Shown: one piece after another, positions 46,489 through 64,000 of the stretch
How the letters are laid out: the number at the start of each line of letters is the position of its first letter
How positions within the stretch are numbered: position 1 is the first letter of the stretch
Source: a bacterium
GTDB lineage: Bacteria > Zixibacteria > MSB-5A5 > GN15 > FEB-12
Reading direction: 5' to 3'
Length of the DNA stretch: 64,000 nucleotides
Assembly (NCBI GenBank): GCA_043819515.1
Contig: JBDRES010000069.1
Coordinates: 35,722-99,721 of the forward strand
Notes under the pieces: model-generated
Seen by the model: only the letters and a program-made list of their open reading frames with translations
Told to the model about the DNA's origin: nothing
Databases searched by the model: none
Position numbers and translations under genes: made by a program

Positions 46489-48504
<2,016 letters not shown>

Positions 48505-49108: not shown

Positions 49109-49897
49109 TCAGCATTTCAACATCTTCAACTGTTCCTTGGCCTGTTCTGATTCCAGGGTGCCGTCGTGATCATCCACCAGGCGCTTAAACAACTCGCAGG
49201 CCTTGTCCTTGCGGTCAAGTTCCTGGTAGGAGCGAGCCAACTTGAATATGGCGCGACCGATATTGGGGGAGGCTTGGTAGGTCTTAATCAGAAACTCCAG
49301 CTCAGTGACAGCGTCCTGGTATTTCTCCATCGAGTAGTAGCACTCGCCGATCCAATAATAGGCGTTCTCGGCGAAGTCATGTTTCGGACAACTGGCTAAG
49401 AATTTTCTGAATCCTTCTATCGCGGCCTCGTACTCGCCCTGACGAACGTCCAAGAACGACTCATCATAAATCTCGGTACAGTCTACTCCCGGTGAATCAG
49501 TCACGTCGGTCCGCGGTTGCTCCTCTATTTCGGTGCTCGCCCCTGGTGAGGGTTTGAGGATCACCTTGGTCGGCTGCGACTCGATCTGCTGGATCTTGGC
49601 CATGAGCTGCTCGTTGCTCTCCACCAACTGCGCGATTTCATCGCGCAACTCACTCAATGTGGAGTTTACGTCGGCCCGCATTCGACTGTTTTCCTGAGCC
49701 CCGGCGGCAATAACAGAATCAGTCCGCGCCACCATCTCCTGAGTATGGGTGCTTTGGGATTCAAGGCGGCTGATATCGGCGCGAATGTCGCGGACATGCC
49801 GGCTGGTAGCGCAGCCACCGACCAGTAGTCCGACAAACAGAACCGCCATCGTTAAGATGGCGGTGTACATGTAGTTCCTAGACGTTAGCATGGGCAA
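49109..49897 (-). CDS. cpoB: Tol-Pal system lipoprotein YbgF/CpoB-like (coiled-coil + TPR)
   Basis: Lipobox LVGGCA, an N-terminal coiled-coil region (RADVNSTLSELRDEIAQL...) and C-terminal TPR repeats (AENAYYWIGECYYSMEKYQDAVTELEFLIKTY...). Lies immediately downstream of pal. Confidence 0.6.
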   Translation of the reverse strand: MPMLTSRNYMYTAILTMAVLFVGLLVGGCATSRHVRDIRADISRLESQSTHTQEMVARTDSVIAAGAQENSRMRADVNSTLSELRDEIAQLVESNEQLMAKIQQIESQPTKVILKPSPGASTEIEEQPRTDVTDSPGVDCTEIYDESFLDVRQGEYEAAIEGFRKFLASCPKHDFAENAYYWIGECYYSMEKYQDAVTELEFLIKTYQASPNIGRAIFKLARSYQELDRKDKACELFKRLVDDHDGTLESEQAKEQLKMLKC

Positions 49898-49910
49898 TTC
49901 CTGACGACCG

Positions 49911-50426
49911 TCACTGTGAGACGATCCTGAACTCGCCGCGGCGATTCTTGCCCCAGGCCGCTTCGTTATGGCCGGGATCCTTTGGCTTCTCCTTACCGTA
50001 GCTTATCACCGACAAACGACTTCCGGCAATACCGCGGCCGACCAGATACTCCATGACGGCCTTAGCCCGCTTCTCACCGAGCGACATGTTGTACTCAACC
50101 GTGCCGCGTTCGTCGCAGTGCCCTTCGATCTTGACGATGACATCGCCAAACTCAGCCAACAGCTCATAGTTGGCATCCAAAGCCGCCTTGGCGTCGGCCC
50201 GGAGGTTGTACTTGTCAAAATCGAAGTAGACAGTCTTGAGCTGCTCTACCTTGAGCTCCGGCTTTGGCGGCGGCGGGGGTGGCTCTTCAACAACAACAGG
50301 GGTTGTGTCAACCGGTGTTATCTCCACCGGCTCTTCCACCGGTACTTCCTTCGGTCCGCCACAAGACATCACCAACAGGGCCAGCAGAGCCAGACCCACT
50401 ACTCCGAGTAATCCCAAATTTCTCAT
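49911..50426 (-). CDS. pal: Peptidoglycan-associated lipoprotein Pal (OmpA-like)
   Basis: Lipobox LVMSCGG, a Pro-rich linker, then the OmpA-like domain VYFDFDKYNLRADAKAALDAN...IEGHCDERGTVEYNMSLGEKRAKAV. Confidence 0.85.
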   Translation of the reverse strand: MRNLGLLGVVGLALLALLVMSCGGPKEVPVEEPVEITPVDTTPVVVEEPPPPPPKPELKVEQLKTVYFDFDKYNLRADAKAALDANYELLAEFGDVIVKIEGHCDERGTVEYNMSLGEKRAKAVMEYLVGRGIAGSRLSVISYGKEKPKDPGHNEAAWGKNRRGEFRIVSQ

Positions 50427-50633
50427 TCTTCACCTTCCCTAAAAGGCTATATAAACACCAATTGTTACTTTCATACCTATAGTCTAGCTAATCTATCAAT
50501 ACTGTTTAACAAGGTCAACATTTAATAGATCATTAGGCCGCATTTTTGACTATCCCGCACCTAACTTTGCCGGTTGCGGACTGGGTATCGTCGGCCGGGG
50601 GCAAGGCCCCACCTTCTGTAGCTCATATTCGTT

Positions 50634-51521
50634 CTATACTAACCTCCCTTGGGCCACCGGCACCACGCTACCCCCCACTTTCACAACGATCTTCCCGCAC
50701 GTCTCATCGGCCTGGATACACAGCCGGGACGGCCGACCCATCTGGACACCCTGCTCAACAACCAGGGAGATCTTGTTTTTGTCCAGAACTCGGTGTTTTA
50801 CCAGGTAAGCGGCCAAACATCCGTTGGCTGATCCGGTAGCCGGATCCTCCGGGACGCCATAATAATCGGCAAACATGCGGACATTCAGATCGCAATCGGG
50901 ATCATGTGTCTGGCGGCAGTAAGTGAGGATATCTTTGCCGTCCAGAGGCTCAATTAGGGCTTCGCAGCGGGCCCGATCGATTCTAATCCTATCCTGAGCC
51001 TCAAGCGATACCAGTGGAGCAATAATCGTCCAGAAGCCGGTCGAGACCTCCTGAACAGGAGATCTGGGTTCCAGGTCGTCCGGTTTGAGCCCCAACACTC
51101 GGGCCACCTCGGCCCGGTCCAGCTCCCGGCCGAACGACGGGGGCAGTTGCGTCATGGTCAGCCGAGTTGGCTCTCCATCCGCAAATTCAAACGCTACCGG
51201 AATGCGACCGGCCGGGACCGCGAGCGTCACTTCGGTCAATTGTCCGTTTGATAGGTGCTGCCGGATAATATAGGCGGTGCCAAGCGTTGGGTGGCCGGCA
51301 AACGGCAATTCATGCTGCGGCGTAAAAATCCTGACCGGCCAGGCATCGTCTTGCGGGCTGTCGGCGGTTATGAAAGTGGTCTCCGAGAAATCGAATTCGC
51401 GCGCGATTTGCTGCATCTCGGCGTCGGTTAAGCCCGACGCATTCAATACCACGGCCAGTTGATTGCCGGCATACTTCTGCTGCGCAAAGACGTCGACGAT
51501 ATAGAACTTGTGATCGGCCAT
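50634..51521 (-). CDS. PhzF-family (phenazine biosynthesis-like) isomerase
   Basis: FYIVDVFAQQKYAGNQLAVVL...DAEMQQIAREFDFSETTFI N-terminal signature of the PhzF/YddE DAP-epimerase-fold family. Confidence 0.75.
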   Translation of the reverse strand: MADHKFYIVDVFAQQKYAGNQLAVVLNASGLTDAEMQQIAREFDFSETTFITADSPQDDAWPVRIFTPQHELPFAGHPTLGTAYIIRQHLSNGQLTEVTLAVPAGRIPVAFEFADGEPTRLTMTQLPPSFGRELDRAEVARVLGLKPDDLEPRSPVQEVSTGFWTIIAPLVSLEAQDRIRIDRARCEALIEPLDGKDILTYCRQTHDPDCDLNVRMFADYYGVPEDPATGSANGCLAAYLVKHRVLDKNKISLVVEQGVQMGRPSRLCIQADETCGKIVVKVGGSVVPVAQGRLV

Positions 51522-51573
51522 TGCTTCCTCCGGCGGATTCTCTTGACTAATCGCATCATGTCGACCGGCGTCG

Positions 51574-52908
51574 TTATCTCAACGGTCCCCAATCCGGGCT
51601 GGATGTTCCCTGTGAGCGTGTCAAGCGGCGCTGGTTGCGTCCGGTGATGTCCATTGTGAAGAGTTCGGGGTGAGGAGTGATACGATCGGTCGAAGTGAAT
51701 ATGATATGCTTACCGTCGGGAGAGAAGTGAGGATTCTCGTTATGTCCTACTTCGGTCAGCACTCGAAAGTCGGTTCCGGAAGTATCAATCGAAGCCAGGT
51801 CAAAACGACCCAGCTTAGTGCGCGTTACGAAGGTAATGCGGTCGCCGCGGTCGGACCAGATGGGGGAGTCATTGTAGCTGCCTTTGTAGGTAAGACGCAC
51901 CGTGTTCAGGCCGTCGGCATCCATGATGTACACTTGCGGTGCTCCGCTGCGGTCGGAAGCGAACGCAATCCGACGGCTGTCGGGCGACCAGGTCGGTGAA
52001 GTGTCGATCGACCGATGGTAGGTCAGGCGCTTGATAATCTTACCGTCGGTGCGGAGGGCGTAGATTTCGGAATTGCCGTCTTTGGAAAGGACACAGGCAA
52101 TCTGCCGGCCGTCGGGACTGACGGCCGGGGCGGCGACGATGCTGCCCTCAAATGAGGCGACCTTGGTGAGGTGGTTGTTTTCCAGGTTGATTACAAACAG
52201 TGACGGATCGCCGTCCTTGTAGCTGACGAAAAACACTTCATTACCCAGAGGGGAGAAGGATGGGGAGAGATTTATGCTGCCGTTGTTGGTTAGCTGCCGC
52301 TCGTTGGCGCCGTCATAATCGGATAAAAACAGTTCCTTGCCTTTTGCGTTTTGCTTGGCATAGACGATTTGCGTCAGGAAAATCCCAGGATCACCGGTCA
52401 GATTGTAAACGACATCGTTAGCGATGTCATGACCTAACTCGCGCCATTGTTCCTTGGGGCGGGCAAGCGTACCCCGGGCGAATTGTTGACGGCCGGCAAC
52501 GTCCCACAACCGCCAGCGAACGCGCATATTCTCAGCCGGGAATTCCGCCTCGAGCCGAAGCAGATAAGTCGCTCCCAATCGTTGCCATCCGAGGACATCC
52601 AGTTCCGAGATTTCGTAGGTTTTAAGATAGAAACTGTCAACAAAGACCAATTCAAAGTCGGCATAAAAATCGATATCATTGCGCACCACGGCGGTCGCGT
52701 AGGCCATCAGAGTCGAGTCGCTCTGGGTGATATAATCGGTGCCGATGTAGCTCATATCGCCTACGCCGATGGGGGTGGCGGCGACATCGCCGGTAACCAG
52801 CGTGTCGAAGTACACATTTCTGATATTGTCGAATTGGGCCTCGGCCGTTGTTGTCACGATCAACAACAGCGCCAGTGAAAGTACCAACAGAAGACACTTT
52901 GATTTCAT
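51574..52908 (-). CDS. tolB: Tol-Pal system beta-propeller protein TolB
   Basis: Signal peptide, a TolB N-terminal domain, then repeated SPxxSPDG propeller blades (SPSFSPLGNEVFF, SPDGRQIAC, SPTWSPDSRRIAFASDRSG, HFSPDGKHIIF). Confidence 0.8.
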   Translation of the reverse strand: MKSKCLLLVLSLALLLIVTTTAEAQFDNIRNVYFDTLVTGDVAATPIGVGDMSYIGTDYITQSDSTLMAYATAVVRNDIDFYADFELVFVDSFYLKTYEISELDVLGWQRLGATYLLRLEAEFPAENMRVRWRLWDVAGRQQFARGTLARPKEQWRELGHDIANDVVYNLTGDPGIFLTQIVYAKQNAKGKELFLSDYDGANERQLTNNGSINLSPSFSPLGNEVFFVSYKDGDPSLFVINLENNHLTKVASFEGSIVAAPAVSPDGRQIACVLSKDGNSEIYALRTDGKIIKRLTYHRSIDTSPTWSPDSRRIAFASDRSGAPQVYIMDADGLNTVRLTYKGSYNDSPIWSDRGDRITFVTRTKLGRFDLASIDTSGTDFRVLTEVGHNENPHFSPDGKHIIFTSTDRITPHPELFTMDITGRNQRRLTRSQGTSSPDWGPLR

Positions 52909-52912
52909 GTTC

Positions 52913-53641
52913 TCACCTGGGTTCGTACTTGAAGGGCAGAGTGATGCCGATGATTTCGTCCGTGAACTGACGGGGCAGCGGCGGGAAGGGGCTGGAACCG
53001 TTCACCGCTCGCAAGCAGGCGTCGTCGAACTGACCGATTCCGGAAGATTGTTCAATGCGAGCCTCAATTATGCGTCCGGACTTCATTACCTGGAAGTAGA
53101 CGACGCATATGATCGAGCCGTCGGTGGCGACCGGGTTGCGCCAGTTGCGCAGGATCTTGTTAAAGGCTTGAGTGAACCAATAGGGGTAGTTGAACGAGCG
53201 GCTGTCGACCGTGGCGCCGGCCAGCGCTGAACCCTGGCCGGTGACCGGCGAGTGGATTTGCTGCTGGCCGGTATCCCCCTCGGCAGGTCGGCGATTGTCG
53301 CCGGTGGGTTTGTCAGGCGGCGCCTGGTCGGGTTCCTTGACAGACTCCACGACCGGTTCAGGTTTGATCTCCGCCTCTTGCTTCGTAGTCGGGTCGCTTA
53401 TGGGGATTTCTTCGGGGGGCTCTTCGGCCGGTGGCGGGATGCTGGGTTGCACCATTTCCTCAGGCTCGGTCTCTTCGACCGCGGGCATTTCCTGTCCGGC
53501 TACCTGCGACCAATCGAGAACATCAACCCTGATGACCTCGCCCAGCAACGGCATTTCCCGGCCGCCCAGCGATGGCGCCACGACCATCAGGACGACGGCC
53601 AGGACATGCAGGCCGACCGACAATGCTATATCCCGTCTCAT
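52913..53641 (-). CDS. tolA: TonB/TolA-family energy transducer (TolA by context)
   Basis: N-terminal TM anchor, a Pro/Glu-rich spacer (PPPAEEPPEEIP...) and a C-terminal TonB_C-like domain (ICVVYFQVMKSGRIIEARIEQSSG...ACLRAV). Confidence 0.6.
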   Translation of the reverse strand: MRRDIALSVGLHVLAVVLMVVAPSLGGREMPLLGEVIRVDVLDWSQVAGQEMPAVEETEPEEMVQPSIPPPAEEPPEEIPISDPTTKQEAEIKPEPVVESVKEPDQAPPDKPTGDNRRPAEGDTGQQQIHSPVTGQGSALAGATVDSRSFNYPYWFTQAFNKILRNWRNPVATDGSIICVVYFQVMKSGRIIEARIEQSSGIGQFDDACLRAVNGSSPFPPLPRQFTDEIIGITLPFKYEPR

Positions 53642-53647
53642 AATAAG

Positions 53648-54082
53648 TTATCGCTTGCGGCGCCCGAGAATGCCTTTTTCCTCGTGACCGGTGACCAGGC
53701 CGATGGCATCGACCCCCGATTCCTTGAGCTTGCCGACGACCTTGATGGCATAGCCGTAGGAGAGGGCTGAGTCGCCGCGAACGTAGACGTTTCGCGTGTT
53801 TTCGCGATCCATCGCCTCCTGGACTTCATCGCCGACATTCTCCAGTCGACACCAGACATCGTTGATGTAGATCCCGCCGGTTGAGTCGATGGTAATTATG
53901 ACCCCCTCGACTTCGCTCTCAAGAGCCGCAACTTTTGTTTTGGGCAGGTTGATCTCGATCCCGGATTGCAGCAGGGGGGCGGAGATCATGAATATTATCA
54001 ACAGCACCAGTACCACATCGACCAGGTTGGCAATGTTGATATCCGATATGGCGTTGTAGCTGCGTTGACGTCGTCGGCGCAC
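53648..54082 (-). CDS. tolR: Biopolymer transport protein TolR/ExbD
   Basis: GTG start with AGGAAGGAG RBS. One TM helix (LVDVVLVLLIIFMI) and a periplasmic ExbD fold (VIITIDSTGGIYINDV...NVYVRGDSALSYGYAIKV). The track ORF to 54292 is a spurious extension overlapping tolQ. Confidence 0.75.
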   Translation of the reverse strand: MRRRRQRSYNAISDINIANLVDVVLVLLIIFMISAPLLQSGIEINLPKTKVAALESEVEGVIITIDSTGGIYINDVWCRLENVGDEVQEAMDRENTRNVYVRGDSALSYGYAIKVVGKLKESGVDAIGLVTGHEEKGILGRRKR

Positions 54083-54798
54083 TAGCGGGACTCCTTCCTG
54101 GCCCGGGCGAGAAAGCCCAGGATGAAGCCGCCGGCGGCGTCGTTGGCAATTTTGATCTGGCTGTTGGCCCAGTTGTAGGCGATTACGGCCGGAATGGCCG
54201 CCGCCAGACCAATAATAGTGGCCAGCAATGCCTCGGCAATACCGGGTGCCACCACCGCCAACGAAGCCGAGCCCATCTCGCCGATTTCCCAAAACGAACC
54301 CATGATGCCGACCACCGTGCCCAGCAGGCCCAAAAACGGCGCGGAATTGCCGGTCGTCGCCAAAACGACTACCAGATGTTCCAAACGACCTATTTCCTCG
54401 GTGACCGTTCTCTCCATGGTCATTTCAATTATCTCAAAATCCTCCGCTTCCAGCGGGTGGCGGCTTGACTGCAAGGCACCACCTTCGTTGCGCAGTTGGT
54501 CCAGGCTGGTCAACTCTTCATACCCGGCCAAAAATGTTTTAGCCAGAGGCGAAGCGCTTTGCGACTTGGCCTGACCGATCGCATCGGCCAGCCGACCGGA
54601 TCTTTTGAACGAACTTAGGAAGGCGTGGCCGGCTCTGCTGGAATGGCGGAACTGGCGCCACTTGTGGAAGATTACGACCCAGGAGATCAGCGACATGCCG
54701 ATCAGGACAATCAGGATGAACTTGCCGAAAACTGACGTATTCTGGATTATTTGCCAGACCGCGCCTGAAAAAATGGAAGGGAGAATCAGTGTGCTCAT
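54082..54798 (-). CDS. tolQ: MotA/TolQ/ExbB proton-channel protein TolQ
   Basis: 3 TM helices and the conserved C-terminal LGLLGTVVGIMGSFWEI...APGIAEALLATIIGL motifs. Start at MSTLILPS (the alternative start is 54849). Confidence 0.8.
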   Translation of the reverse strand: MSTLILPSIFSGAVWQIIQNTSVFGKFILIVLIGMSLISWVVIFHKWRQFRHSSRAGHAFLSSFKRSGRLADAIGQAKSQSASPLAKTFLAGYEELTSLDQLRNEGGALQSSRHPLEAEDFEIIEMTMERTVTEEIGRLEHLVVVLATTGNSAPFLGLLGTVVGIMGSFWEIGEMGSASLAVVAPGIAEALLATIIGLAAAIPAVIAYNWANSQIKIANDAAGGFILGFLARARKESR

Positions 54799-55008
54799 AT
54801 CAATCTTACGCCTTACTCCTGCAAAAGTTTGCCGGCAATCAGAGAGCAACCGCGCTCTTTGGTCGCCGGGCAGATAACATCACACTTACTTATATGCGCG
54901 CCGGGTTCCAGGACAACAAAAAACGCATTTCAAACTTGACCGGAGGCCTGTTTCGCGTGCTACTTCGAAATGAATGCAGGTCTGTTGTCTTTGGAAGGAG
55001 GAGAAATC

Positions 55009-55212
55009 ATGAAGGTGTTGTTGATGTTTGGGTTGATTTTGGTCTTTGGGCTTAGTTTGGCCGTGATCGGCTGTGGCCAGAAGGAGGCCACTCCTGACAA
55101 GCCGCCACTCGAGGTCCAGGAGGCTGAGAGCATGGATTCGACCGCTATGGACTCGGCCGCCATGGAGGATGTGCCGGTCGATTCGATGGTGCAGCCGCAC
55201 GACAGTATGTAA
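55009..55212 (+). CDS. Small acidic Met-rich lipoprotein
   Basis: GGAAGGAGGAG RBS, then MKVLLMFGLILVFGLSLAVIGCGQ (lipobox IGC), followed by Met/Asp/Ser-rich repeats MDSTAMDSAAMEDVPVDSMVQPHDSM. Confidence 0.45.
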   Translation: MKVLLMFGLILVFGLSLAVIGCGQKEATPDKPPLEVQEAESMDSTAMDSAAMEDVPVDSMVQPHDSM

Positions 55213-55284
55213 CGGCCGCATCCGACAAACGAATACGGCCCTCGCCTAATAGCAAGGGCCGTAGCTACTTATACTATTCTCGCA

Positions 55285-56412
55285 CTAATCTTCGATCATC
55301 TCAACATTGGCTCGGGGAACAATCACGCGTTCGCCGCTCTCCAGTTTTACTTCCAGTACTCGTGCTTTGGATTCCGATTCCAGCACCTGCAGCGGAGCCG
55401 GCAGGTCGACAACATCACCGAGCTGGCCGAAATAGGGGTGGCGGATGACGCGGATCGGTGATCCGGCCGTCAGACCCTTGATCTCAGCCGCCTTGGCATC
55501 GTCGACAGCCGTGGTTGTATCCTTGGCGGGGATAACCACTTCCGGCCTGATGACGCCGGCGCGGATTTGGGTGGCCCCGTTGATGCAGGCCTTTTCGCCT
55601 TCATGGGCTTTGAGCAGGTTGAAGGTTTTGCCGGCCATGTTGATCTGACCAAAACCTTCTGTCACCACCAGGGTGATGCCTTTGTCCTCAGCGCCGGTAA
55701 TGGCCACACCGATATCATACCCCAAAAAGTCGCGCAGGTCCTTGTCATCAAAGCCACCAACGACGATACCTTTGGCACCAACTTGTATCGCCTTTTTCAG
55801 GGCCTCGGCCGTTACCAACGAACCGCCGACAATCACCTGACCTTTCATTTGGTCGGTGATCAGCTTCTCGTCGAGTACGGTCGCATTGTCGGGCGTGGCC
55901 ATCATGATGTTGCCCGAGGTCTCACCGCCGATACCAAAAATCCCTTGCATAAACGAACCATAGCAGGACACCACCACGCCTTCTTCCGGGATTACTTCCG
56001 TGACCTGGCCGCTGAGGTACGCCTTGACCTCAACCGGAATGGGTTCGCCGCGCTGCAGCACTTGACCGGTCACTTTGGAAATCGACTCGATGGTTCCGCC
56101 GATGGTCGCCTCGCAGGAGGAGGAAAACCACTTGATGAACGACTTTTTGAGGGCGATGACTTCTCCTTGTTCCATGGAATCGCCGACCTTTTTGGTCATC
56201 ACCAAGTCAATATCTTCCGGCGGAATGCTGAGCTTATTGGCGACATTGAGGGGGACAACATTACCGGGCAGGTGCGTCCGCGCGATGACGTCTTCGGGGG
56301 TGACCCGGTCGCCGACCTTCACCACCACTTCGCCCTTGAGGGGCAGGATTCGTCTTTTCTCAACCAGATGTCTTTCCGTGACCTTCAGTCCCGGAGTATA
56401 GGCATGAGCCAT
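55285..56412 (-). CDS. Hypothetical protein, putative partner of MutL/GlmL-family ASKHA protein
   Basis: 375 aa with a Gly-rich core (GIFGIGGETSGNIMMA, GAKGIVVGGFDD, AITGAEDKGITLVVTEGFG). Family not recognised. Confidence 0.45.
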   Translation of the reverse strand: MAHAYTPGLKVTERHLVEKRRILPLKGEVVVKVGDRVTPEDVIARTHLPGNVVPLNVANKLSIPPEDIDLVMTKKVGDSMEQGEVIALKKSFIKWFSSSCEATIGGTIESISKVTGQVLQRGEPIPVEVKAYLSGQVTEVIPEEGVVVSCYGSFMQGIFGIGGETSGNIMMATPDNATVLDEKLITDQMKGQVIVGGSLVTAEALKKAIQVGAKGIVVGGFDDKDLRDFLGYDIGVAITGAEDKGITLVVTEGFGQINMAGKTFNLLKAHEGEKACINGATQIRAGVIRPEVVIPAKDTTTAVDDAKAAEIKGLTAGSPIRVIRHPYFGQLGDVVDLPAPLQVLESESKARVLEVKLESGERVIVPRANVEMIED

Positions 56413-56431: not shown

Positions 56432-57313
56432 TCAGCTTCGTTTTTTCCGTTTACGTCGGGCTACGGTTATGATGACGACAAGGACTCCGATCAAGACGAC
56501 AACCGGTATACTTCCGCTGGTTTCGGATTTGCCGCTTCCCGGTTCGTATTCTGACCGTTCCGGCAGAGCAGCGTCGGTGACTTTCACTTCCTCCCGCGGA
56601 GCCGCCGCCTCGATATTCTCGGTGGACAATGATGCCACGACTTGTTGCATGGTCTGAAGGCCGTCTTCGAACAGCGAGTCCGGGGCATAGTAAAAGAAGG
56701 TCGCAATCCCCTTTTCGTAAAATCGCAACATGACTAGACTGCGTTTGACGGTCCCGCCGGCGATTCCAATCTCATTCATGACCGAGGCGACCTTCAGCTC
56801 GGGATCGTACGAGGGGGAGTTGGCCCGAAGATTGGCCAGAAGCTTGGCCACCGGAAAGTAATTCAGCTCAGAGTTGAAGGTGCTGAAAAGATCCTCCATA
56901 ACCGAGTCAATCTCAGGCTCGTTGAGTTCGCCGACCGTATCGACCGTCAGGACGAAATACTCCCCATCATAGAAAGCCTCGTGGAGGGTGTCGGCAAAGA
57001 CGGCGTCGTAGTCCAGGATGGCATCGCCGGCTTGATTGATCATTAGATAGGCGTCGGCCTTGGCGTAGTCGATCTGCCTCCAGGCCTCCGGGTAGCTGAT
57101 ATAGAAACCACCCTTCCACGACACGTGATTTCGCGCCGAAGCGGTTGTCGCCAGAGCCGCAATCATAGTTAAGTACAACAATGCGGCTCCGAGTAGCCAT
57201 CCAGAGCGCTTTGTCTTCATAATAATCCTCGCCAATTTCTCATCCACCAACGACAGGTTCCGGGCGACTTCTACAGCCGATCGGTCGGGTAAATATCCAA
57301 TTCCCTCATCCAT
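56432..57313 (-). CDS. Hypothetical membrane-anchored protein (signal peptide + C-terminal TM helix with polybasic tail)
   Basis: Internal Met at 57220 gives MKTKRSGWLLGAALLYLTMIAALA, a signal-like N-terminus. C-terminus ...EPGSGKSETSGSIPVVVLIGVLVVIITVARRKRKKRS. Confidence 0.4.
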   Translation of the reverse strand: MDEGIGYLPDRSAVEVARNLSLVDEKLARIIMKTKRSGWLLGAALLYLTMIAALATTASARNHVSWKGGFYISYPEAWRQIDYAKADAYLMINQAGDAILDYDAVFADTLHEAFYDGEYFVLTVDTVGELNEPEIDSVMEDLFSTFNSELNYFPVAKLLANLRANSPSYDPELKVASVMNEIGIAGGTVKRSLVMLRFYEKGIATFFYYAPDSLFEDGLQTMQQVVASLSTENIEAAAPREEVKVTDAALPERSEYEPGSGKSETSGSIPVVVLIGVLVVIITVARRKRKKRS

Positions 57314-59118
57314 TTGCGCAAATGCGAAACGCGGTCGTCCTCGGAGAGCGTCGAAAGATCAAAGGGTCGTCCGCGACCGTCCAGGATGACGCCCACCACA
57401 CCGCCGTGGAGGGTCGTTTCGAAGCGGTGACCGGGACCACCTCCGACATCAAAATGACGCTCCGGTTCCAGAACCGCTTTGGCGGTTTGAGGCAGACCGT
57501 TTTCGCCCAGACCCAACTCAAACTTCTTCATCTCAAGATGATCGAGGGTCCCGGAGACGGTACCGGTAGGCAACTCAATTGTGTATTTCATAACCGGCCC
57601 CGGCTTCTTGGCCTGGCCCACCGGAGCGACGCAGGTGCCGAGGTGGATCAAGCAGTCCTTGATAAATACTTCGGTGGCGGCCTTTTCGTGGACCTCGGTA
57701 AGAACACCGAGCTGGGGCATCATAAAGATCGAGTCGACCGCCAGCCGGGTGACACCTTCGGGCAGGAAGGCATCAATCATCATCAGGGCCGACTGTTGGC
57801 GGCGCGGCGCATGAGACAGCACGCCTCCCGAGCCGATCAGCATATCGAGGGACATCATGTTGACGATCGTGGCGCCCGAGGAAGATTGATCAAAGGCGTC
57901 GGCAATGGTCCGCTGCTGCTGTACTCCCTTGAGTACCGTAGCGAAGCTCTTATGCTGAATGAAGGCCAGGCGCAACGCCTCCTTGGCGATAGCCTGTTCG
58001 AATATCAGCTCTTCCATAGACTGCGGAATGGTCGTTGGGCGGATCATCTTGTTTTTGACCCGGTTGCGCAGATCACGCTCATCCATTTTGAAGGGTACCC
58101 AGCGCATGACCATCGGCAGGGTGGCCTCGGCAAAGACATTCGAAATAGAGTATGACATGCCCAGGTTGGCCGACACGGTCCGATTGAAGACCGGTTCTTT
58201 CTCGGGCATGAAAACCGAGAAGACGTCAGTTGTGGCGCCGCCGATATCAACTCCGACCGCTTCGATCCCGTACTGCTTGGCGATGGTCTGAATGATAAGC
58301 CCGACGGCCCCGGGCGTGGGCATGATCGGTGCGTCGGCCCAGGACATCAGTTTCTTGTAGCCGGGGGCCTGGGCCATGACGTGCTCCATGAACAACTCAT
58401 GAATCTCCTCACGAGCCGGAGCCAGGTTTTCGCGTTCCAGAACCGGGCGCAGGTTGTCGACGATCTTCAGGTCGCATTTTTCTTGGAGAGTCTCTGCCAC
58501 GGCATCCCGAGCGGCGTAGTTACCGGCATAAATGATCGGCAGCTTGTAGCTTGATCCGAGGCGAGGGCGAGGGTCGGCGGCGGAAATCAGTTCAGCGATT
58601 TCAACCACGTGAGTAGTGGTGCCGCCGTCGATGCCGCCCGAAAGCAGGATCATGTCCGGGCGCAAGTGCCTGATACGCTCGATCTGCTGATGAGGCAGGC
58701 GTTTGTCGTTGGAGGCGATCACGTCCATGACGATCGCCCCGGCGCCGAGAGCGGCCCGTTCAGCCGATTCGGCTGTCATCGACCGCACCACCCCGGCCAC
58801 CATCATTTGCAAACCACCGCCGGCCGACGAAGTGGAAATATAAACGTCGGTGCCGTCTTTTCCATTGGACGGAGAGATGAACTTCCCGTTATCATCCAGG
58901 AGCTTGCGCCCGGAAAGCTCTTCGACTTCGGCCACTGCGTTCAGGACGCCCATGGTTACATCCTCGAAGGGAGCCTCCACGGTTGTGGGAGCTTCACCGC
59001 GAGTCGTCAGGCGGTACTCACCGTTTATATACTCGATCAGGATAGCTTTGGTGGTGGTAGAACCACAGTCAGTAGCGACGATTACCTTGATGTCATCCGG
59101 GTTTTCGAATTTGGCCAT
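57271..59118 (-). CDS. MutL/GlmL-family ASKHA-fold protein (glutamate-mutase-L-like putative reactivase/chaperone)
   Basis: Two actin-fold phosphate motifs, VIVATDCGSTTTKAILI and VGVDIGGATTDVFSV. Intervening LLSGGIDGGTT, LAPAREE and MPTPGAVG blocks match my recollection of the GlmL (PF13941) family. About 150 aa of C-terminal extension beyond GlmL. Confidence 0.55.
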   Translation of the reverse strand: MAKFENPDDIKVIVATDCGSTTTKAILIEYINGEYRLTTRGEAPTTVEAPFEDVTMGVLNAVAEVEELSGRKLLDDNGKFISPSNGKDGTDVYISTSSAGGGLQMMVAGVVRSMTAESAERAALGAGAIVMDVIASNDKRLPHQQIERIRHLRPDMILLSGGIDGGTTTHVVEIAELISAADPRPRLGSSYKLPIIYAGNYAARDAVAETLQEKCDLKIVDNLRPVLERENLAPAREEIHELFMEHVMAQAPGYKKLMSWADAPIMPTPGAVGLIIQTIAKQYGIEAVGVDIGGATTDVFSVFMPEKEPVFNRTVSANLGMSYSISNVFAEATLPMVMRWVPFKMDERDLRNRVKNKMIRPTTIPQSMEELIFEQAIAKEALRLAFIQHKSFATVLKGVQQQRTIADAFDQSSSGATIVNMMSLDMLIGSGGVLSHAPRRQQSALMMIDAFLPEGVTRLAVDSIFMMPQLGVLTEVHEKAATEVFIKDCLIHLGTCVAPVGQAKKPGPVMKYTIELPTGTVSGTLDHLEMKKFELGLGENGLPQTAKAVLEPERHFDVGGGPGHRFETTLHGGVVGVILDGRGRPFDLSTLSEDDRVSHLRKWMRELDIYPTDRL

Positions 59119-59503
59119 TACCTTTTCCTGCTATATTGCACCGTCACGTTTTTTCGTATCAGTATGGGTGGCACCATGATAGACATCGCCAGGCGCGCCC
59201 AAACGGCGCCCCCCAAGCCCAAGATTATAACACATGCCGGTAGGGATGTAAAGAGCCATCGGGACCGCTGCCGCCATTTTTTGGAGCTGCCGGTTGGGTC
59301 CCGTTGGGTGGTTCGGTGGCGGCTCGGTCGCCCGGACCGGAATGACGTGCTCCAGACTTCGGACGACCGGTGCGGGGCGGCAGTACAGCTTTTGAGATTC
59401 TCGGGGCGACATCAGCTTTCTCGTTCGTCTCGCCTGGTGTTGTTTGCGTCGAATGCTAACGACAAGCGGCACAAACAAATACGGAGAGCGTTGCCTTTTT
59501 TCA

Positions 59504-59533
59504 CTTGACTTGAACAGGAGCACGTCTATAGAT
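59504..59533 (+). promoter_or_regulatory. Putative sigma70-like promoter in long leader of membrane cassette
   Basis: TTGACT, a 17-nt spacer, then TATAGA. Sits about 210 nt upstream of the proposed A1 start. Confidence 0.3.
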
Positions 59534-59745
59534 TGGCAAAGTTGGCTTGCACGCAGTAGAGGGTATCCTCGTCTGCTGTATGCCTATATGCCGGTCTGAT
59601 TTGTTCCAATCGGTTGTTGGTTGGGCCTATAGTGGTGTGCCGGCAGCGATGCCGTTCGAACGTAAGATACTTACACATTGTAATATACAGGATCGACGAT
59701 TTGAGTCTTCACTGTCAAACTTACGGTAGTCCAGGAAGGCTGCTG

Positions 59746-60999
59746 TTGGTCGCTGTCCTGACACTCGTTTCACTACTCTGGGGAGGTCCAACCGGCGTCC
59801 GGGCGCAGGATGAGACGGTAGTGGATGAGACTGTCTTGGCGGATTCGGCCATCGACACTCTGGCTACCCAGCAGACCCCGGCCCCGGCCACGGGACTTGC
59901 CGTCAAGGATAAGCCGGGCGATGTCGGCGGAGCTGTCAGACTTACCTGGAACGCTTCGGTCGATGATGGCGTCGGCGGCAAAGTACGCCTCTATCGCATA
60001 TTGCGAGCCGACGATGTCGGTGGACAGGCGGGCGAGTTTCGGGAGGTAGGAAATGTCCCGGCTGGAGCAGCCGTTTATACAAACGATGACGGCAATACGG
60101 ACGACGACAAGTCATACTTCTATCGCGTGCAGTCCGTAAACGTCTTTTATGATGAGAACGCCGATGTGCATGAGTACACGGCCGACTCGGAGATTGTCGG
60201 CCCGGTGTCGTCGTCGGCTCAATGGTTCAATTCGGAGCGCTTGAAAACGCTGATCGGGACTATTGTCCTGTCGTTTTTCATAATCTTCTTCATCAATCAG
60301 GCCAAAGCCGGTAAGAAGCTGTTCATTCGCAAAATGGCCGGCATGGAAGCGGTTGACGAAGCGGTCGGTCGCGCCACCGAGATGGGCAAGAAGATTTTCT
60401 ATATCACCGGGCTTGGTGACATGGACAATATGCAGACGATTGCCTCAATAACGATCCTGGGGCGCGTCGCTCAGCTGGCCGCCGAATACGAGACCTATTT
60501 GGATGTGCCCTGTTGCCGCTCGATGGTTATGGTAACGGCCCGTGAGGTCGTCAAGGAAGCGCACTCCAAGGCCGGTCGCCCTGATGCATATAACGATGAC
60601 ATGATTCACTATCTTACCGATGACCAGTTTGGATATGCCGCCGCCGTCGATGGCGCTTTCGTGAGAGAGAAGCCGGCCACGATCTTCTTTATGGGTCAGT
60701 TTTTTGCAGAATCGCTGATTCTGGCGGAAACCGGCAACTCCATTGGCGCCATTCAGATCGCGGGCACGGCCATGCCGTCGCAGTTGCCGTTTTTTGTGGC
60801 GGCATGCGATTACACTCTGATCGGTGAGGAGTTGTTTGCAGCCTCCGCCTACCTGTCCCGGGAGCCGAAACTGCTCGGATCTCTCAAGGGTCAGGATTAC
60901 GGCAAAGCGATCCTCTTAGTTGCCATTGTAGTCGGCCTGGTTCTGGAGACTCTCGGAGTATGGCAGTTGTCCAACCTGTTTCAAGTGATAGGGGAGTAG
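59746..60999 (+). CDS. FN3-like single-pass membrane protein with conserved juxtamembrane AGxEAVDxAxGRATEMG motif (cassette gene A1)
   Basis: TTG 59746 after AGGAAGG gives the signal peptide MVAVLTLVSLLWGGPTGVRAQ (the track start 59614 lacks a signal). Then a beta-sandwich region (VRLTWNAS...YFYRVQSVN), a TM helix, KLFIRKMAGMEAVDEAVGRATEMGKK and a C-terminal domain of about 230 aa ending in a second hydrophobic helix. Confidence 0.5.
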   Translation: MVAVLTLVSLLWGGPTGVRAQDETVVDETVLADSAIDTLATQQTPAPATGLAVKDKPGDVGGAVRLTWNASVDDGVGGKVRLYRILRADDVGGQAGEFREVGNVPAGAAVYTNDDGNTDDDKSYFYRVQSVNVFYDENADVHEYTADSEIVGPVSSSAQWFNSERLKTLIGTIVLSFFIIFFINQAKAGKKLFIRKMAGMEAVDEAVGRATEMGKKIFYITGLGDMDNMQTIASITILGRVAQLAAEYETYLDVPCCRSMVMVTAREVVKEAHSKAGRPDAYNDDMIHYLTDDQFGYAAAVDGAFVREKPATIFFMGQFFAESLILAETGNSIGAIQIAGTAMPSQLPFFVAACDYTLIGEELFAASAYLSREPKLLGSLKGQDYGKAILLVAIVVGLVLETLGVWQLSNLFQVIGE

Positions 61000-61006
61000 C
61001 TCGATT

Positions 61007-61654
61007 ATGAGAAGAGAAATTCCACTATTTATCACAGCGGTTGTCGGCATCGGTTTTGTCCTTCAGTACTTCATACCCCATTTCCCGTTCGGCAATCTGA
61101 GCAACTGGTTCTCCGACTGGTTTTCGATTGTCGGCGCCTGCGCGATCATTCTCGGCGCTCTCAACCTGCTCAAGGTGTCGGCGGAGAAGGCGTACAAGAA
61201 GCAAAGCGATTGGGGCTACGCGGTCGTAATCATCCTGTCATTCCTGATTATCGTATACATCGGTTTGAGTTCCGGTAAGGGATTCCGCGATACCGCCGGA
61301 TGGTCCTGGATGTACAACTTCGTTTACATACCGCTTTCCGCGACGATGTTTTCAATTCTGGCCTTTTTTGTGGCCTCCGCTTCCTATCGCGCTTTCCGCG
61401 CCAGAAACTTCGAGGCCACACTCCTTTTGGTCGCTGCCTTTTTTGTGATGTTGGGACGGGTACCGTTCGGCGATGTGCTTTCCGGATTCATGCCGGAAGG
61501 GGCGCGTTTGTCGGACCTGGCTTCCTGGGTTATGAACTATCCTCAGGCGGCCGGTCAGAGGGCCATCATGATTGGTATCGGCCTCGGCATTGTCTCGACT
61601 TCGCTGAGGATTATCCTCGGGATTGAGCGATCTCACATAGGTGGGGGGAAATAG
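61007..61654 (+). CDS. Polytopic membrane protein (cassette gene B)
   Basis: 215 aa with about 6 predicted TM helices. No motif recognised. Confidence 0.5.
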   Translation: MRREIPLFITAVVGIGFVLQYFIPHFPFGNLSNWFSDWFSIVGACAIILGALNLLKVSAEKAYKKQSDWGYAVVIILSFLIIVYIGLSSGKGFRDTAGWSWMYNFVYIPLSATMFSILAFFVASASYRAFRARNFEATLLLVAAFFVMLGRVPFGDVLSGFMPEGARLSDLASWVMNYPQAAGQRAIMIGIGLGIVSTSLRIILGIERSHIGGGK

Positions 61655-61657
61655 ATT

Positions 61658-62665
61658 ATGAATACACGAGTCAAAGAGATTATCGCCCTCATCGCCATCG
61701 CTGTTTTTTGCATAGTCTTCTATTTCGGCAAGGTCAGTGGCTGGGAACCGATTGAGTTCTCTCCGCTGGTGTCGACTGTTGTGATAGGTCTCCTGGGTTT
61801 GTCCATGATCTGGATCCTTATCCTGACTCTCCAGGGGAAACTCATCGAACGGCGGGTCGTATTCCTGTATGTCGGCGTGGCGGTGTCGCTGCCGCTGTTC
61901 ATGACCATTACTCAGAAGATCGTGGTCTCGCCGGAAGTGACTTCGCTGCACCAGGCGATGGAGGCACTCCAGCCGGGATCGCGAGTGTTGGTATCGTTTG
62001 ACTATGATCCCCCTTCGGCTCCGGAGTTGCAGCCGATGGCCGAGTCGGTGCTGCGGTTTTGCTTTGAGCGCGATCTCAAGGTGATCATCATGGGGTTGTG
62101 GCCACAAGGACCGGATCAAGCCAATCTGGCTTTGGACAAGGTGCTGGCCGAGGAGACTATCGCGGCCAAGGGCCTGGAGTATGGAGTTGATTACGTCAAT
62201 TTGGGCTTCCAGACGGGCAATGAATTCGTGATTCAGCGCATGGGGACGAGTTTCAAATCGATGTTCCCGACCGATTACGCCGGTACCCTGTACGATGAAC
62301 TTCCGCTGGTGCGCAATGTCAAGAATTTCTCCAACATTGATTTCGGTTTCAACCTCTCTTCCGGTTTCCCGGGATCGGTGGAATGGGTGCAGATTGCCGT
62401 CGATCGTTTCGGGATGCTTCTGGGCATTGGCAACACGGCGGTTCAAGCGCCGGTTATGTATGCTTACCTTGATGCGGGACAGCTGACCGGAATCCTGGGA
62501 GGAATGAGCGGTGCCGCCGAGTTTGAGAAAGCCTGTAAGATAGCCGGCAAGGCGACCAAGTTTATGCTCTCACAGTCTTTTGCGCACATGGTCGTCATCG
62601 CGTTTGTAATCATCGGAAACATCGCCTTCTTCATCGGCGGTCGAAAAACAGCCCTGGGCAAGTAG
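61658..62665 (+). CDS. Membrane protein with large extracytoplasmic domain between N- and C-terminal TM helices (cassette gene C)
   Basis: 335 aa: three N-terminal TM helices, a soluble domain of about 200 aa and a C-terminal TM helix (MVVIAFVIIGNIAFFIGG). Topology resembles ABC-transporter auxiliary / GldG-like proteins. Confidence 0.5.
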   Translation: MNTRVKEIIALIAIAVFCIVFYFGKVSGWEPIEFSPLVSTVVIGLLGLSMIWILILTLQGKLIERRVVFLYVGVAVSLPLFMTITQKIVVSPEVTSLHQAMEALQPGSRVLVSFDYDPPSAPELQPMAESVLRFCFERDLKVIIMGLWPQGPDQANLALDKVLAEETIAAKGLEYGVDYVNLGFQTGNEFVIQRMGTSFKSMFPTDYAGTLYDELPLVRNVKNFSNIDFGFNLSSGFPGSVEWVQIAVDRFGMLLGIGNTAVQAPVMYAYLDAGQLTGILGGMSGAAEFEKACKIAGKATKFMLSQSFAHMVVIAFVIIGNIAFFIGGRKTALGK

Positions 62666-62683
62666 GCGGGAGCGAGCATAGAT

Positions 62684-63367
62684 ATGGAACATTTTTCTCT
62701 CTGGTTGGCCGCTTTCTTGACTATCGGGATTATCTCCTTCCTCTATAAGGACAACCCGTGGTACAAACTATGTGAAGCGATTTTCGTGGGGGTATCGGCC
62801 GGTTATTGGGTAGTGGTGCTGTTCTGGGACAATCTGGTCGGCAAGCTGGTTGAGGGCGTTTTCCCTCCCGAAGTGCTGAACGAGGCCGGACAAATGGTGC
62901 CGACTGCCGAGGCCGACTATACGCTGCTGATCGGGGGTGTGCTGGGTCTGCTCATGTTGCTTCGTTTGGTACCCAAGATCGGTTGGTTGTCACGCTGGTC
63001 GCTGGCCTTCATCGTTGGTGCCACGGCCGGGCTCTGGATGATGAACTACATGGCGTCGAATATCATGGCCCAGACGCAGGCCACTATTTTGCCGCTGTTG
63101 TCGGTTGAGTTTGGATCCGGCTTTGATGCCACCATAGGTATCATTATCGGCCGTCTCGTGATTGTGGTCGGCACTGTGACGGGGCTGATCTACTTTTTCT
63201 TCAGCAAGGAGCACACCGGTGCTTTTGGCGGCGCTGCCCGGGTCGGGATATTCTTCCTGATGATTACTTTCGGTGCCTCGTTTGGGTATACCGTCATGAG
63301 TCGTATGTCGCTGCTGATCGGCCGAATTGACTTCCTCCTTCACGATTGGCTGGGGATGATCAATTAG
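62684..63367 (+). CDS. Polytopic membrane protein (cassette gene D)
   Basis: 227 aa with about 6 TM helices. Confidence 0.5.
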   Translation: MEHFSLWLAAFLTIGIISFLYKDNPWYKLCEAIFVGVSAGYWVVVLFWDNLVGKLVEGVFPPEVLNEAGQMVPTAEADYTLLIGGVLGLLMLLRLVPKIGWLSRWSLAFIVGATAGLWMMNYMASNIMAQTQATILPLLSVEFGSGFDATIGIIIGRLVIVVGTVTGLIYFFFSKEHTGAFGGAARVGIFFLMITFGASFGYTVMSRMSLLIGRIDFLLHDWLGMIN

Positions 63368-64000
63368 TGAAGGTACTCTCGAAGGACACGACCCATTTAC
63401 TCCAGCACTCCTGGCTAGTTGCGCTGATCGCATTACTGGGCCTGCTCCCGGCGTGGTCGCCGCCCGCCCTGGCCCAGGAAATCGATGCTGCTGCTGTCTC
63501 TGCGGTCCCGGACAGCACTCTGGCGCAAGTGGCGCCGCCTACCTCGGTGGTGGCCAGGGACTTCAAGTACGACAACGGCGAGGCACTCGATCTGAGCTGG
63601 GTACCCTCGATAGATGACCAGTTGCAGGACAGCCCCGTCATGGGCTACAAAGTGTACCGTATCGCCGACGGCTCCGAACCCCAAGAGATCGCCAGTTTGC
63701 CGCCGAGAGCCAATTCGTTTCATGATGATGGCGTCGAGCTCGGTCATGAATATCGTTACTATGTCGCTACCGTCGGTGGTCAGGCCGAGTATCCCTCGGT
63801 GATAACGGCGCCACTGTCGCCCCAGTGGGAAATGGTGAACCTGAATCTGGGCTACCTGTTCTTGATGGCCTTGATTATCGGGGGAGCCGTGCTCTTTTAC
63901 ATCATCTGGGCCCAGACAGGCAAGACGCTCTTTGTCCGCCGGATAGCCGGACTGGAGGCCGTTGACGATGCTATCGGGCGAGCCACTGAGATGGGTCGGC
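63367..64000 (+). CDS. FN3-like single-pass membrane protein, paralog of 59746..60999 (cassette gene A2, 3'-truncated by window end)
   Basis: GTG start overlapping the upstream stop (TAGTG). Not in the supplied ORF track. Signal peptide VKVLSKD..LVALIALLGLLPAWSPPALAQE, then LDLSWVP..YKVYRI..YRYYVATV (FN3-like), a TM helix and TLFVRRIAGLEAVDDAIGRATEMG, which is near-identical to the motif in A1. Confidence 0.5.
   Translation, partial: MKVLSKDTTHLLQHSWLVALIALLGLLPAWSPPALAQEIDAAAVSAVPDSTLAQVAPPTSVVARDFKYDNGEALDLSWVPSIDDQLQDSPVMGYKVYRIADGSEPQEIASLPPRANSFHDDGVELGHEYRYYVATVGGQAEYPSVITAPLSPQWEMVNLNLGYLFLMALIIGGAVLFYIIWAQTGKTLFVRRIAGLEAVDDAIGRATEMGR

Follow-up and report, generated by a model that had tools for sequence, protein, structure and literature searches.

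Gene Organization of the A-B-C-D Cassette

The window analyzed here is a stretch of 64,000 nucleotides from a Zixibacteria contig (JBDRES010000069.1, positions 35,722 to 99,721), and the subject of this work is a cassette of membrane protein genes at its 3' end, designated A1, B, C, D, and A2. These five genes had been proposed in a first-pass annotation made from the sequence alone, and all are indeed present, A1 to D as open reading frames (ORFs) and A2 as a truncated gene opening with GTG (Table 1). Database searches returned hundreds to thousands of homologs for each cassette gene, which places them far beyond chance ORFs. The gaps between A1 and B, B and C, and C and D are 7, 3, and 18 nt, respectively, with a Shine-Dalgarno-like G-run before each, while the stop codon of D and the start codon of A2 share one base (TAGTG). 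With the gene order also kept across phyla, these short gaps and the overlap agree with the earlier proposal of a single operon. The same annotation had described three polytopic proteins bracketed by paralogous single-pass proteins; what is found instead is a unit of four genes, A-B-C-D, repeated in tandem, in which A has two transmembrane (TM) helices and a conserved cytoplasmic domain.

Sequence comparison firmly supports the prediction that A to D constitute one co-transcribed and co-evolving inner-membrane assembly, of a family without a characterized member. Equally firm are the triplication of this assembly in Zixibacteria and its genomic linkage to MutL, an ATPase of the GlmL family, and to a second protein, p375. 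The predicted heteromeric complex, previously uncharacterized, is here named the DUF6754 system.

Table 1. Positions in the window of the cassette genes, their predicted domains, the promoter-like sites and the neighboring genes (TM, transmembrane; aa, amino acids).
Feature	Position	Strand	Remarks
Gene A1	ORF 59614-60999; coding most likely from 59701 (432 aa)	+	ORF translation
A1 signal peptide	59701-59805	+	Predicted from translation
A1 FN3 domain	about 59890-60210	+	Beta-sandwich
A1 TM helix 1	about 60232-60309	+	Followed by DUF6754 cytoplasmic alpha/beta domain
A1 C-terminal TM helix	about 60880-60951	+	Second helix, behind the DUF6754 domain
Gene B	61007-61654 (215 aa)	+	6-TM protein, both termini predicted cytoplasmic
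Gene C	61658-62665 (335 aa)	+	TM helices and predicted periplasmic Rossmann-like domain
C periplasmic Rossmann-like (beta-alpha)6 domain	about 61931-62533	+	Three N-terminal TM helices before, one C-terminal TM helix after
Gene D	62684-63367 (227 aa)	+	6-TM protein, N-terminus predicted periplasmic
Gene A2	63367-64000, runs off window end	+	Opens second A-B-C-D unit: signal peptide, FN3, TM helix, start of DUF6754
Promoter-like site, A-B-C-D operon	59504-59534	+	-35 TTGACT 59505-59510, -10 TAGATT 59529-59534; consensus scan 9/12
Promoter-like site, divergent MutL-p293-p375-Tol/Pal operon	59224-59252	-	TTTACA-17-TATAAT, 11/12 consensus matches, TG extension
MutL (GlmL-family ASKHA-fold ATPase)	57271-59118 (615 aa)	-	Pfam MutL PF13941, E 4e-130, full model length
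p293 (membrane protein)	56432-57313 (293 aa)	-	No family match; lies between MutL and p375
p375	55285-56412 (375 aa)	-	Putative N-terminal barrel-sandwich-hybrid domain and a C-terminal domain of no assigned family
Tol-Pal cluster	49109-54849	-	TolQ, TolR, TolA-like, TolB, PhzF-like, Pal, CpoB-like; Pfam matches; context, outside the cassette

Conservation and Tandem Repetition of the Unit

A scan for the DUF6754 domain of protein A, with one genome per species, confirmed at least 552 relatives among the 600 pattern matches listed, and 79 loci were fetched. The carriers were Zixibacteria, WOR-3, Fermentibacteria, Aegiribacteria, Coatesbacteria, Stahlbacteria, Gemmatimonadota, Armatimonadota, Poribacteria, Cloacimonadota, Eisenbacteria, and Planctomycetaceae, along with metagenome-assembled genomes (MAGs) labeled Ignavibacteriales/Ignavibacteria or "Deltaproteobacteria" and one labeled Bacillota. 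The order A-B-C-D was seen in essentially every locus (six-frame ORFs gave 139 A, 130 B, 126 C, and 118 D). For synteny, a set of 115 loci from many phyla was used (83 from genomes and 32 from metagenomes), and the four genes, whose co-occurrence the first-pass annotation had wanted checked, kept their order in essentially all of them. The A-B-C-D operon is strongly conserved in many, mostly uncultured, bacterial phyla. No homology to a transporter family with an ATPase encoded nearby emerged, and as the neighborhood is conserved, the cassette holds on both of the points on which it had been considered vulnerable. The A family comprises at least 8000 clusters at 90% identity and the D family, which lacks a Pfam model, 1830 clusters at 50% identity.

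It had also been suspected that the unit is iterated beyond the window, and this was found to be so in a close relative (L004, an ENA contig whose proteins are 84–87% identical to those of the window), from which, and not from the window's own contig, the continuation was read. The gene order of this relative is A1-B1-C1-D1-A2-B2-C2-D2-A3-B3-C3-D3; its A2 is 63% identical to that of the window and leads on to B2-C2-D2 and the complete third unit. Threefold repetition of A-B-C-D occurs in many other Zixibacteria, two units are found in some phyla and one in most, where the single unit is either type-1-like or type-2-like. Paralogs from different units share 46–49% (A), 30–46% (B), 30–37% (C), and 37–50% (D) identity. 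Many Zixibacteria have unit types 1, 2, and 3 in one fixed order and as orthologous sets, so that the four genes diverge together.

One chromosome-level MAG (CP070824.1) possesses a solo DUF6754 gene (L002:10001-12388), without B, C, and D and followed by an S49/NfeD-like membrane protease, with its remaining units at two separate loci, L001 and L045. This assembly appears to contain frameshift-type errors, D being fragmented in L001 and one gene not translating to its recorded product.

Protein A and the DUF6754 Domain

The first-pass annotation recognized no family for any of the cassette proteins. This stands for C and D, which have no match in Pfam or NCBIfam, and in effect for B, whose borderline match to Pfam TMD0_ABC (27.6 bits, cut-off 27) was treated as hydrophobic-composition noise as it was shared by only 10 of 63 B homologs. 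It does not stand for protein A. A1 matches Pfam DUF6754 (PF20539) with 417 bits and an E value of 3e-125 over 256 of the 257 model positions (gathering threshold 27 bits), and with the truncated A2 scoring 56.5 bits (E 3e-15), both are clear members of this family. The Pfam entry is silent on the partners B, C, and D, on the operon and its tandem triplication, and on the link with MutL and p375; no paper mentioning DUF6754 or PF20539 was found in the literature collection searched, nor one on FN3 in Zixibacteria.

The DUF6754 model runs from the first TM helix of A through its cytoplasmic alpha/beta domain to the TM helix at the C-terminus, so that A, earlier taken to be a single-pass protein, has a second TM helix behind a domain of ~200 aa. 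The near-identical motifs reported for the two paralogs, KLFIRKMAGMEAVDEAVGRATEMGKK in A1 and TLFVRRIAGLEAVDDAIGRATEMGR in A2, are present in the translations; what had been called a juxtamembrane motif, however, is the start of this conserved domain. Positive-inside counts over the alignment place the FN3 region outside and the alpha/beta domain in the cytoplasm. The latter is 64–88% identical to the window copy across phyla, the residues conserved in it map to C-terminal ends of beta-strands, and many of its acidic residues are invariant. The stretch AESLILAETG...IQIAGT...QLPFFVAACDYTLIGEELFAASAYL of the A1 DUF6754 region (60214-60978) is the most conserved in the system and also the part which AlphaFold2 predicts most poorly (predicted local distance difference test, pLDDT, <50); this stretch may fold solely against partner subunits.

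At the level of sequence, the N-terminal domain of A is weakly related to FN3, with A2 reaching 17.5 bits against PF00041 (threshold 25 bits), A1 giving no match to this model, and the N-terminal profile matching FN3 domains of the PDB with an E value of 0.0033 at best. At the level of fold it qualifies as FN3, being a seven-strand beta-sandwich that superimposes on solved FN3 domains. This periplasmic module is exchangeable. In a MAG labeled Bacillota (L058:8222-10684) a BamB/PQQ-type beta-propeller takes the place of FN3, and in three MAGs labeled Deltaproteobacteria (L063, L067, L081) A seems by eye to bear two FN3-like domains, with Pfam giving one weak fn3 match, in L081. The A3 protein of L004 has a long insert within or beside the FN3 region, which by eye we take to be helical.

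Homology between the cytoplasmic domain of A and the periplasmic domain of C was also considered, on the basis of a pattern noticed by eye (G-T-A...Q.P...L.G..G..AA) and of the same order of elements in both (TM helix, helix, (beta-alpha)n, TM helix). It was rejected, as hhalign gave a probability of at most 4% with full-length and domain-only alignments.

Membrane Proteins B, C, and D

As described in the first-pass annotation, B and D (each ~220 aa) show six hydrophobic segments and the 335-aa protein C has a large domain between membrane helices. For B, hydropathy and positive-inside counts in 63 homologs place the N- and C-termini in the cytoplasm, together with the conserved loop ASYRAFRARN. 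For D, positive-inside counts over alignments put the N-terminus outside, opposite to that of B, which leaves the conserved motifs LYKDNPFYK, RL.PK..W.SRW, and YFFFSKEHxG in cytoplasmic loops. The most conserved motifs of both proteins would therefore face the conserved domain of A.

Natural variants of these proteins are consistent with such an arrangement. Three C-D fusions of ~580–600 aa (P0319, P0328, and P0402) have exactly one extra TM helix, with ~55 residues, between the last helix of C and the first helix of D. The first of these (P0319, QDT64036.1) belongs to a planctomycete in culture, Calycomorphotria hydatis, whose genome is complete. An additional N-terminal signal-anchor helix, at times followed by a periplasmic domain, is carried by D2-type and D3-type proteins and by many other representatives, and some B3 paralogs contain an FG-GAP propeller in loop 3–4. 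From the positive-inside counts, the extra helix of the fusions, the signal-anchor variants of D and the propeller in loop 3–4 of B, it is predicted that B (N-in) and D (N-out) are antiparallel. A common origin of B and D was rejected after comparison with hhalign, as were 3+3 repeats within either protein (probability ≤16%).

The propeller inserts were located in the third-unit B genes at L018:18633-20408 and L039:15391-17169, where FG-GAP repeats of ~370 aa (beta-propeller) occupy the periplasmic loop 3–4. A C-D read-through without the extra TM helix, at L045 of CP070824.1, was discounted as a likely assembly error.

The domain of C is placed in the periplasm by positive-inside counts and was modeled with a pLDDT of 90.3 by AlphaFold2. 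Its conserved residues coincide with the C-terminal strand ends, where proteins of this fold usually have their ligand-binding crevice. Structure comparison matched it with RCK/KTN domains, short-chain dehydrogenases, sirtuins, the C-terminal halves of GT-B glycosyltransferases and isochorismatase-like proteins, the top matches of the cassette models having at most 14% identity and TM-scores of at most 0.5. Searched as profiles against PDB chains, B, C, D, the DUF6754 domain, p375, and MutL gave no match with an E value below 0.01. A role in anti-phage defense was dropped, with no PADLOC match for A, B, C, D, MutL, p375, or p293.

Upstream Region

The 627-bp gap that separates A1 from the divergent MutL gene was aligned with that of five relatives (six sequences in all). 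Two conserved islands stand out in otherwise ~48% identical sequence. One is the block CTTGACTT-N17-ATAGATT on the plus strand (59504-59534), without change in any of the six sequences, and the other is the minus-strand site TTGTAAAG / CATTATAA, kept in L003, L057, L014, and L006. As these are two conserved promoter-like sites in opposite orientation, the gap appears to be a divergent promoter region and not the 600-bp leader described previously; the 5' untranslated region, from the plus-strand site to A1, would measure only ~160 nt. In this region a riboswitch or other structured leader was rejected, there being no Rfam match, no repeats and a fold z-score of -0.7. The 627-bp region is thus predicted to serve both A-B-C-D and a functionally linked MutL/p375 operon on the opposite strand.

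The start of A1, earlier set at 59746, is most likely the TTG at 59701-59703. This codon and the AGGA preceding it are the same in all six aligned sequences, and translation from it yields a canonical signal peptide (MSLHCQTYGSPGR-LLLVAVLTLVSLLW-GGPTGVRA|QD), in agreement with the gene call in the closest relative. Over the whole window, no tRNA genes and no Rfam families were found.

Neighboring Genes

MutL, encoded divergently from A1, retains the nucleotide-binding motifs of the ASKHA fold. ATDCGSTTTK, VDIGGATTD, and GSGG are invariant across phyla, in which MutL identity is 65–89%, and we take these to be the phosphate-1, phosphate-2, and adenosine motifs. MutL also resembles, though weakly, the archaeal actin Ta0583 and MreB-like_C. 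In spite of its strong match with the Pfam family PF13941, it differs in several respects from GlmL/MutL, the accessory protein of glutamate mutase (PF13941, TIGR01319). It scores 236 bits against the NCBIfam GlmL equivalog (cut-off 475) and 174 bits against TIGR01319 (cut-off 204), is also below the Or-4 cut-off, and has an extra C-terminal region of ~125 aa. It does not lie between glmS and glmE, no glutamate mutase genes are found nearby (its neighbors being p293, p375, TolQ, and A1), and it is paired with p375 and membrane proteins. The literature collection searched contained no paper on PF13941 or on GlmL with ASKHA, and glutamate mutase L was found in none of the papers listed.

The N-terminus of p375 gives weak, below-threshold matches to barrel-sandwich-hybrid models that nevertheless recur among its family members, namely to Biotin_lipoyl (15 of 19 members), RnfC_N (10 of 19), and NQRA_N (8 of 19), and its identity across phyla is 51–75%. 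The MutL-p375 pair adjoins A-B-C-D in 20 of the 52 loci with at least 4 kb of upstream sequence, either divergently, as in the window, or co-directionally as (cl8-cl6-)MutL-p375-A-B-C-D. In a reverse scan of metagenome contigs starting from p375, MutL stood beside it in 56 of 62 loci, and A-B-C-D was adjacent in 15 of the 26 loci having at least 3 kb on either side. On this genomic evidence, MutL and p375 are likely cytoplasmic partners of A-B-C-D. Homologs of p293 were found in five close Zixibacteria relatives among the genome loci and in three metagenome loci; in other phyla, the region upstream of MutL instead encodes cl8, a small protein with two TM helices, and cl6, also small. A 111-aa ORF without a family (54886-55221, minus strand) also lies inside the MutL operon.

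Directly downstream of MutL-p293-p375, and on the same strand, is the complete Tol-Pal cluster, in which a PhzF-family gene (50634-51521) sits between tolB and pal (Pal/OmpA) and the CpoB-like product is a TPR protein. Loci of the Fermentibacteria/Aegiribacteria type have the order GcvT/GcvP, cl8, cl6, MutL, p375, A-B-C-D, TonB-dependent receptor, ExbB, ExbD, ExbD, TonB. Those of WOR-3 and Stahlbacteria have acyl-CoA dehydrogenases on one side and, on the other, A-B-C-D, a DUF4388 protein, further genes and ExbB-ExbD-ExbD-TonB. A TolQ/ExbB-type stator cluster is therefore a recurrent neighbor in about three lineages, which is suggestive, though short of decisive. Elsewhere, genes for an M28 peptidase, an alpha/beta hydrolase and an Orn/DAP decarboxylase occur near A-B-C-D. 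In the window, the Tol-Pal cluster is itself flanked by genes for a PhaR-like polyhydroxybutyrate (PHB)-accumulation regulator with a phasin domain (45859-46449, plus strand) and for the NAD-dependent DNA ligase LigA (46489-48501, minus strand).

Possible Function of the DUF6754 System

The function which we favor for A to D, albeit with low confidence and short of an even chance, is that of an energy-coupled translocation complex of a new kind. The antiparallel 6-TM pair B/D would form the membrane core. Protein A would contribute a variable periplasmic interaction module (FN3, in some genomes replaced by a BamB-like propeller or supplemented by another FN3-like domain) and an extremely conserved cytoplasmic alpha/beta domain, which would be held between its two TM helices and dock on the cytoplasmic loops of B and D; C would provide a Rossmann-like domain at the periplasmic face. 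MutL and p375, at the cytoplasmic face, would energize the complex or process its substrate, and the three units of Zixibacteria may be diverged copies with differing specificities or partners. The least certain element is that a substrate or ion would cross the inner membrane through the B/D pair. Translocation is favored because the antiparallel pairs of small polytopic proteins known to us are all found in translocation systems (NqrD/E, RnfA/E, paired SMR proteins, Fluc), and also because of the multiplicity of paralogs and the conservation in C resembling a ligand crevice. The TolQR/ExbBD-TonB and TonB-dependent receptor genes nearby in three lineages are a further point in its favor.

A number of observations weigh against translocation. 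No homology to any transporter or pump was detected in Pfam, NCBIfam or profile searches, and as hhalign gave neither B-D homology nor internal repeats, the antiparallel pseudo-symmetry is one of predicted topology. The conserved half of the A domain was modeled with a pLDDT below 50. MutL and p375 adjoin the cassette in only ~40–60% of loci, and so their link to it may be metabolic rather than physical. Cross-phylum identity of ~65% is unusual for nutrient transporters and is better suited to a core machine.

This level of conservation, together with the adjacency to Tol-Pal, speaks for the main rival explanation, which we regard as rather less probable, that of a trans-envelope structural or force-transducing machine. 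In it, the A-D platform would couple cytoplasmic, actin-fold and possibly polymeric MutL to periplasmic partners through FN3, the propellers and the C domain, acting alongside Tol-Pal/TonB-type stators in envelope integrity, division or surface motility. MutL-p293-p375 lies directly upstream of tolQ-tolR-tolA-tolB-pal-cpoB, ExbB-ExbD-TonB flanks A-B-C-D in the Fermentibacteria-type and WOR-3/Stahlbacteria loci, and the identities of MutL, p375, and the A domain are at a level that we associate with multi-contact machines or polymers. The periplasmic modules are variable domains of the scaffold type (FN3, FG-GAP, BamB-like propeller), and the weak similarity of MutL to Ta0583 and MreB-like_C would also fit. 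Against this, polymerization of GlmL-family proteins has to our knowledge never been shown, no scaffold complex with an antiparallel 6-TM pair is known to us, and three diverged tandem copies are better explained by differing substrate specificities. The Tol/Exb adjacency is limited to nine genome loci, with a few more from metagenomes, in about three lineages, and may reflect synteny by inheritance. Like the cassette, Tol-Pal and ExbBD-TonB are envelope-associated inner-membrane assemblies with periplasmic reach, but A to D and p375 match no MotA_ExbB, ExbD, TonB_C or other Tol family, and they are to be seen as genomic neighbors, not homologs.

A membrane enzyme complex whose substrate would be lipid-linked or part of the envelope, serving for example in glycosyl, phosphoryl or acyl transfer, is considered improbable. 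The Rossmann-like domains of A and C would then be catalytic or nucleotide-binding and B/D would be the lipid-substrate-binding core, in keeping with the conserved residues at the C-terminal ends of beta-strands in both domains and with the many invariant acidic residues. Foldseek matched C with, among others, the halves of PimA, WaaA, WaaG, OtsA, and BshA (GT-B) that bind nucleotide sugars and with isochorismatase-like hydrolases, and the weakest possible hint in the profile searches was to TagA (E 0.45). However, Pfam and NCBIfam gave no hidden Markov model match to a glycosyltransferase, PAP2, UbiA or any other enzyme, nor was an enzyme motif found, and a nucleotide-sugar enzyme domain in the periplasm would be without its substrate there. 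Yet more doubtful is an architectural analog of Na+-NQR/Rnf, in which p375, as a barrel-sandwich plus alpha/beta protein, would correspond to NqrA/RnfC, B/D to NqrD/E, C to NqrC, and A to a membrane-anchored cytoplasmic Rossmann subunit, with a cytoplasmic reaction coupled to ion translocation. The likeness lies in the antiparallel 6-TM pair (~200 aa in Na+-NQR/Rnf, ~215–230 aa in B and D), in a TM-anchored subunit with a periplasmic domain, as in the topology of C, and possibly in a peripheral subunit with an N-terminal barrel-sandwich hybrid, p375 members matching RnfC_N and NQRA_N, all below threshold and less commonly than Biotin_lipoyl. Such domains are common in unrelated proteins, however, and the cassette has no detectable homology to these complexes, B and D giving no match to the Rnf-Nqr family in Pfam or NCBIfam. 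There are no invariant cysteines in B, C, or D, no SGAT-type flavinylation, Fe-S or NADH-binding motif was seen by eye, an equivalent of NqrB/RnfD is lacking, and the cytoplasmic associate is an ASKHA ATPase.

The analogy with GldG, raised in the first-pass annotation, would make C an auxiliary protein and B/D the permeases of an ABC-type system with its ATPase encoded elsewhere. The topology of C is in agreement with this, in that TM helices enclose a large alpha/beta domain in the periplasm and small 6-TM partners are encoded alongside, as in GldF/GldG/GldA, and the borderline TMD0_ABC match of B could be read in the same way. Much of the spread of the cassette is also in phyla that we group with Fibrobacterota, Chlorobiota, and Bacteroidota. 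The remainder of the analogy was lost. C is approximately half the size of GldG and without sequence or profile similarity to it, A to D have no ABC_transp_aux, ABC-2 or FtsX match, and TMD0_ABC is matched by a minority of B homologs. ORFs with Walker A and signature (LSGGQ) motifs occur within 5 kb of A-B-C-D in only five of the 115 loci and never at a conserved position, and B and D are predicted to be antiparallel, whereas the halves of ABC permeases are parallel. As it lacks three defining features (family match, cognate ATPase and parallel permeases), this reading is the least favored; it is already largely refuted and we consider it hardly credible.

In a broader formulation, which we put forward as unlikely but worth stating, A to D with the GlmL-like ASKHA ATPase and p375 would be a widespread and ancient machine, translocating or force-generating, built around an antiparallel 6-TM pair. 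It would have a Rossmann-like domain on either side of the membrane, and an ATPase of the actin/kinase fold would power or gate it in place of one of the ABC, P-type, AAA+ or rotary kind. If an ASKHA ATPase does drive a membrane complex, this would represent a new way of energizing a membrane machine. 

The conservation of MutL, p375, and the A domain across phyla is, in our view, comparable to that of ATP synthase or MreB, and B, C, D, and p375 have no family model. Occurring in many environmentally abundant and mostly uncultured phyla, the DUF6754 system is likely to be at the core of their envelope or energy biology, and the C-D fusion in cultured Calycomorphotria hydatis opens an experimental approach to its role.

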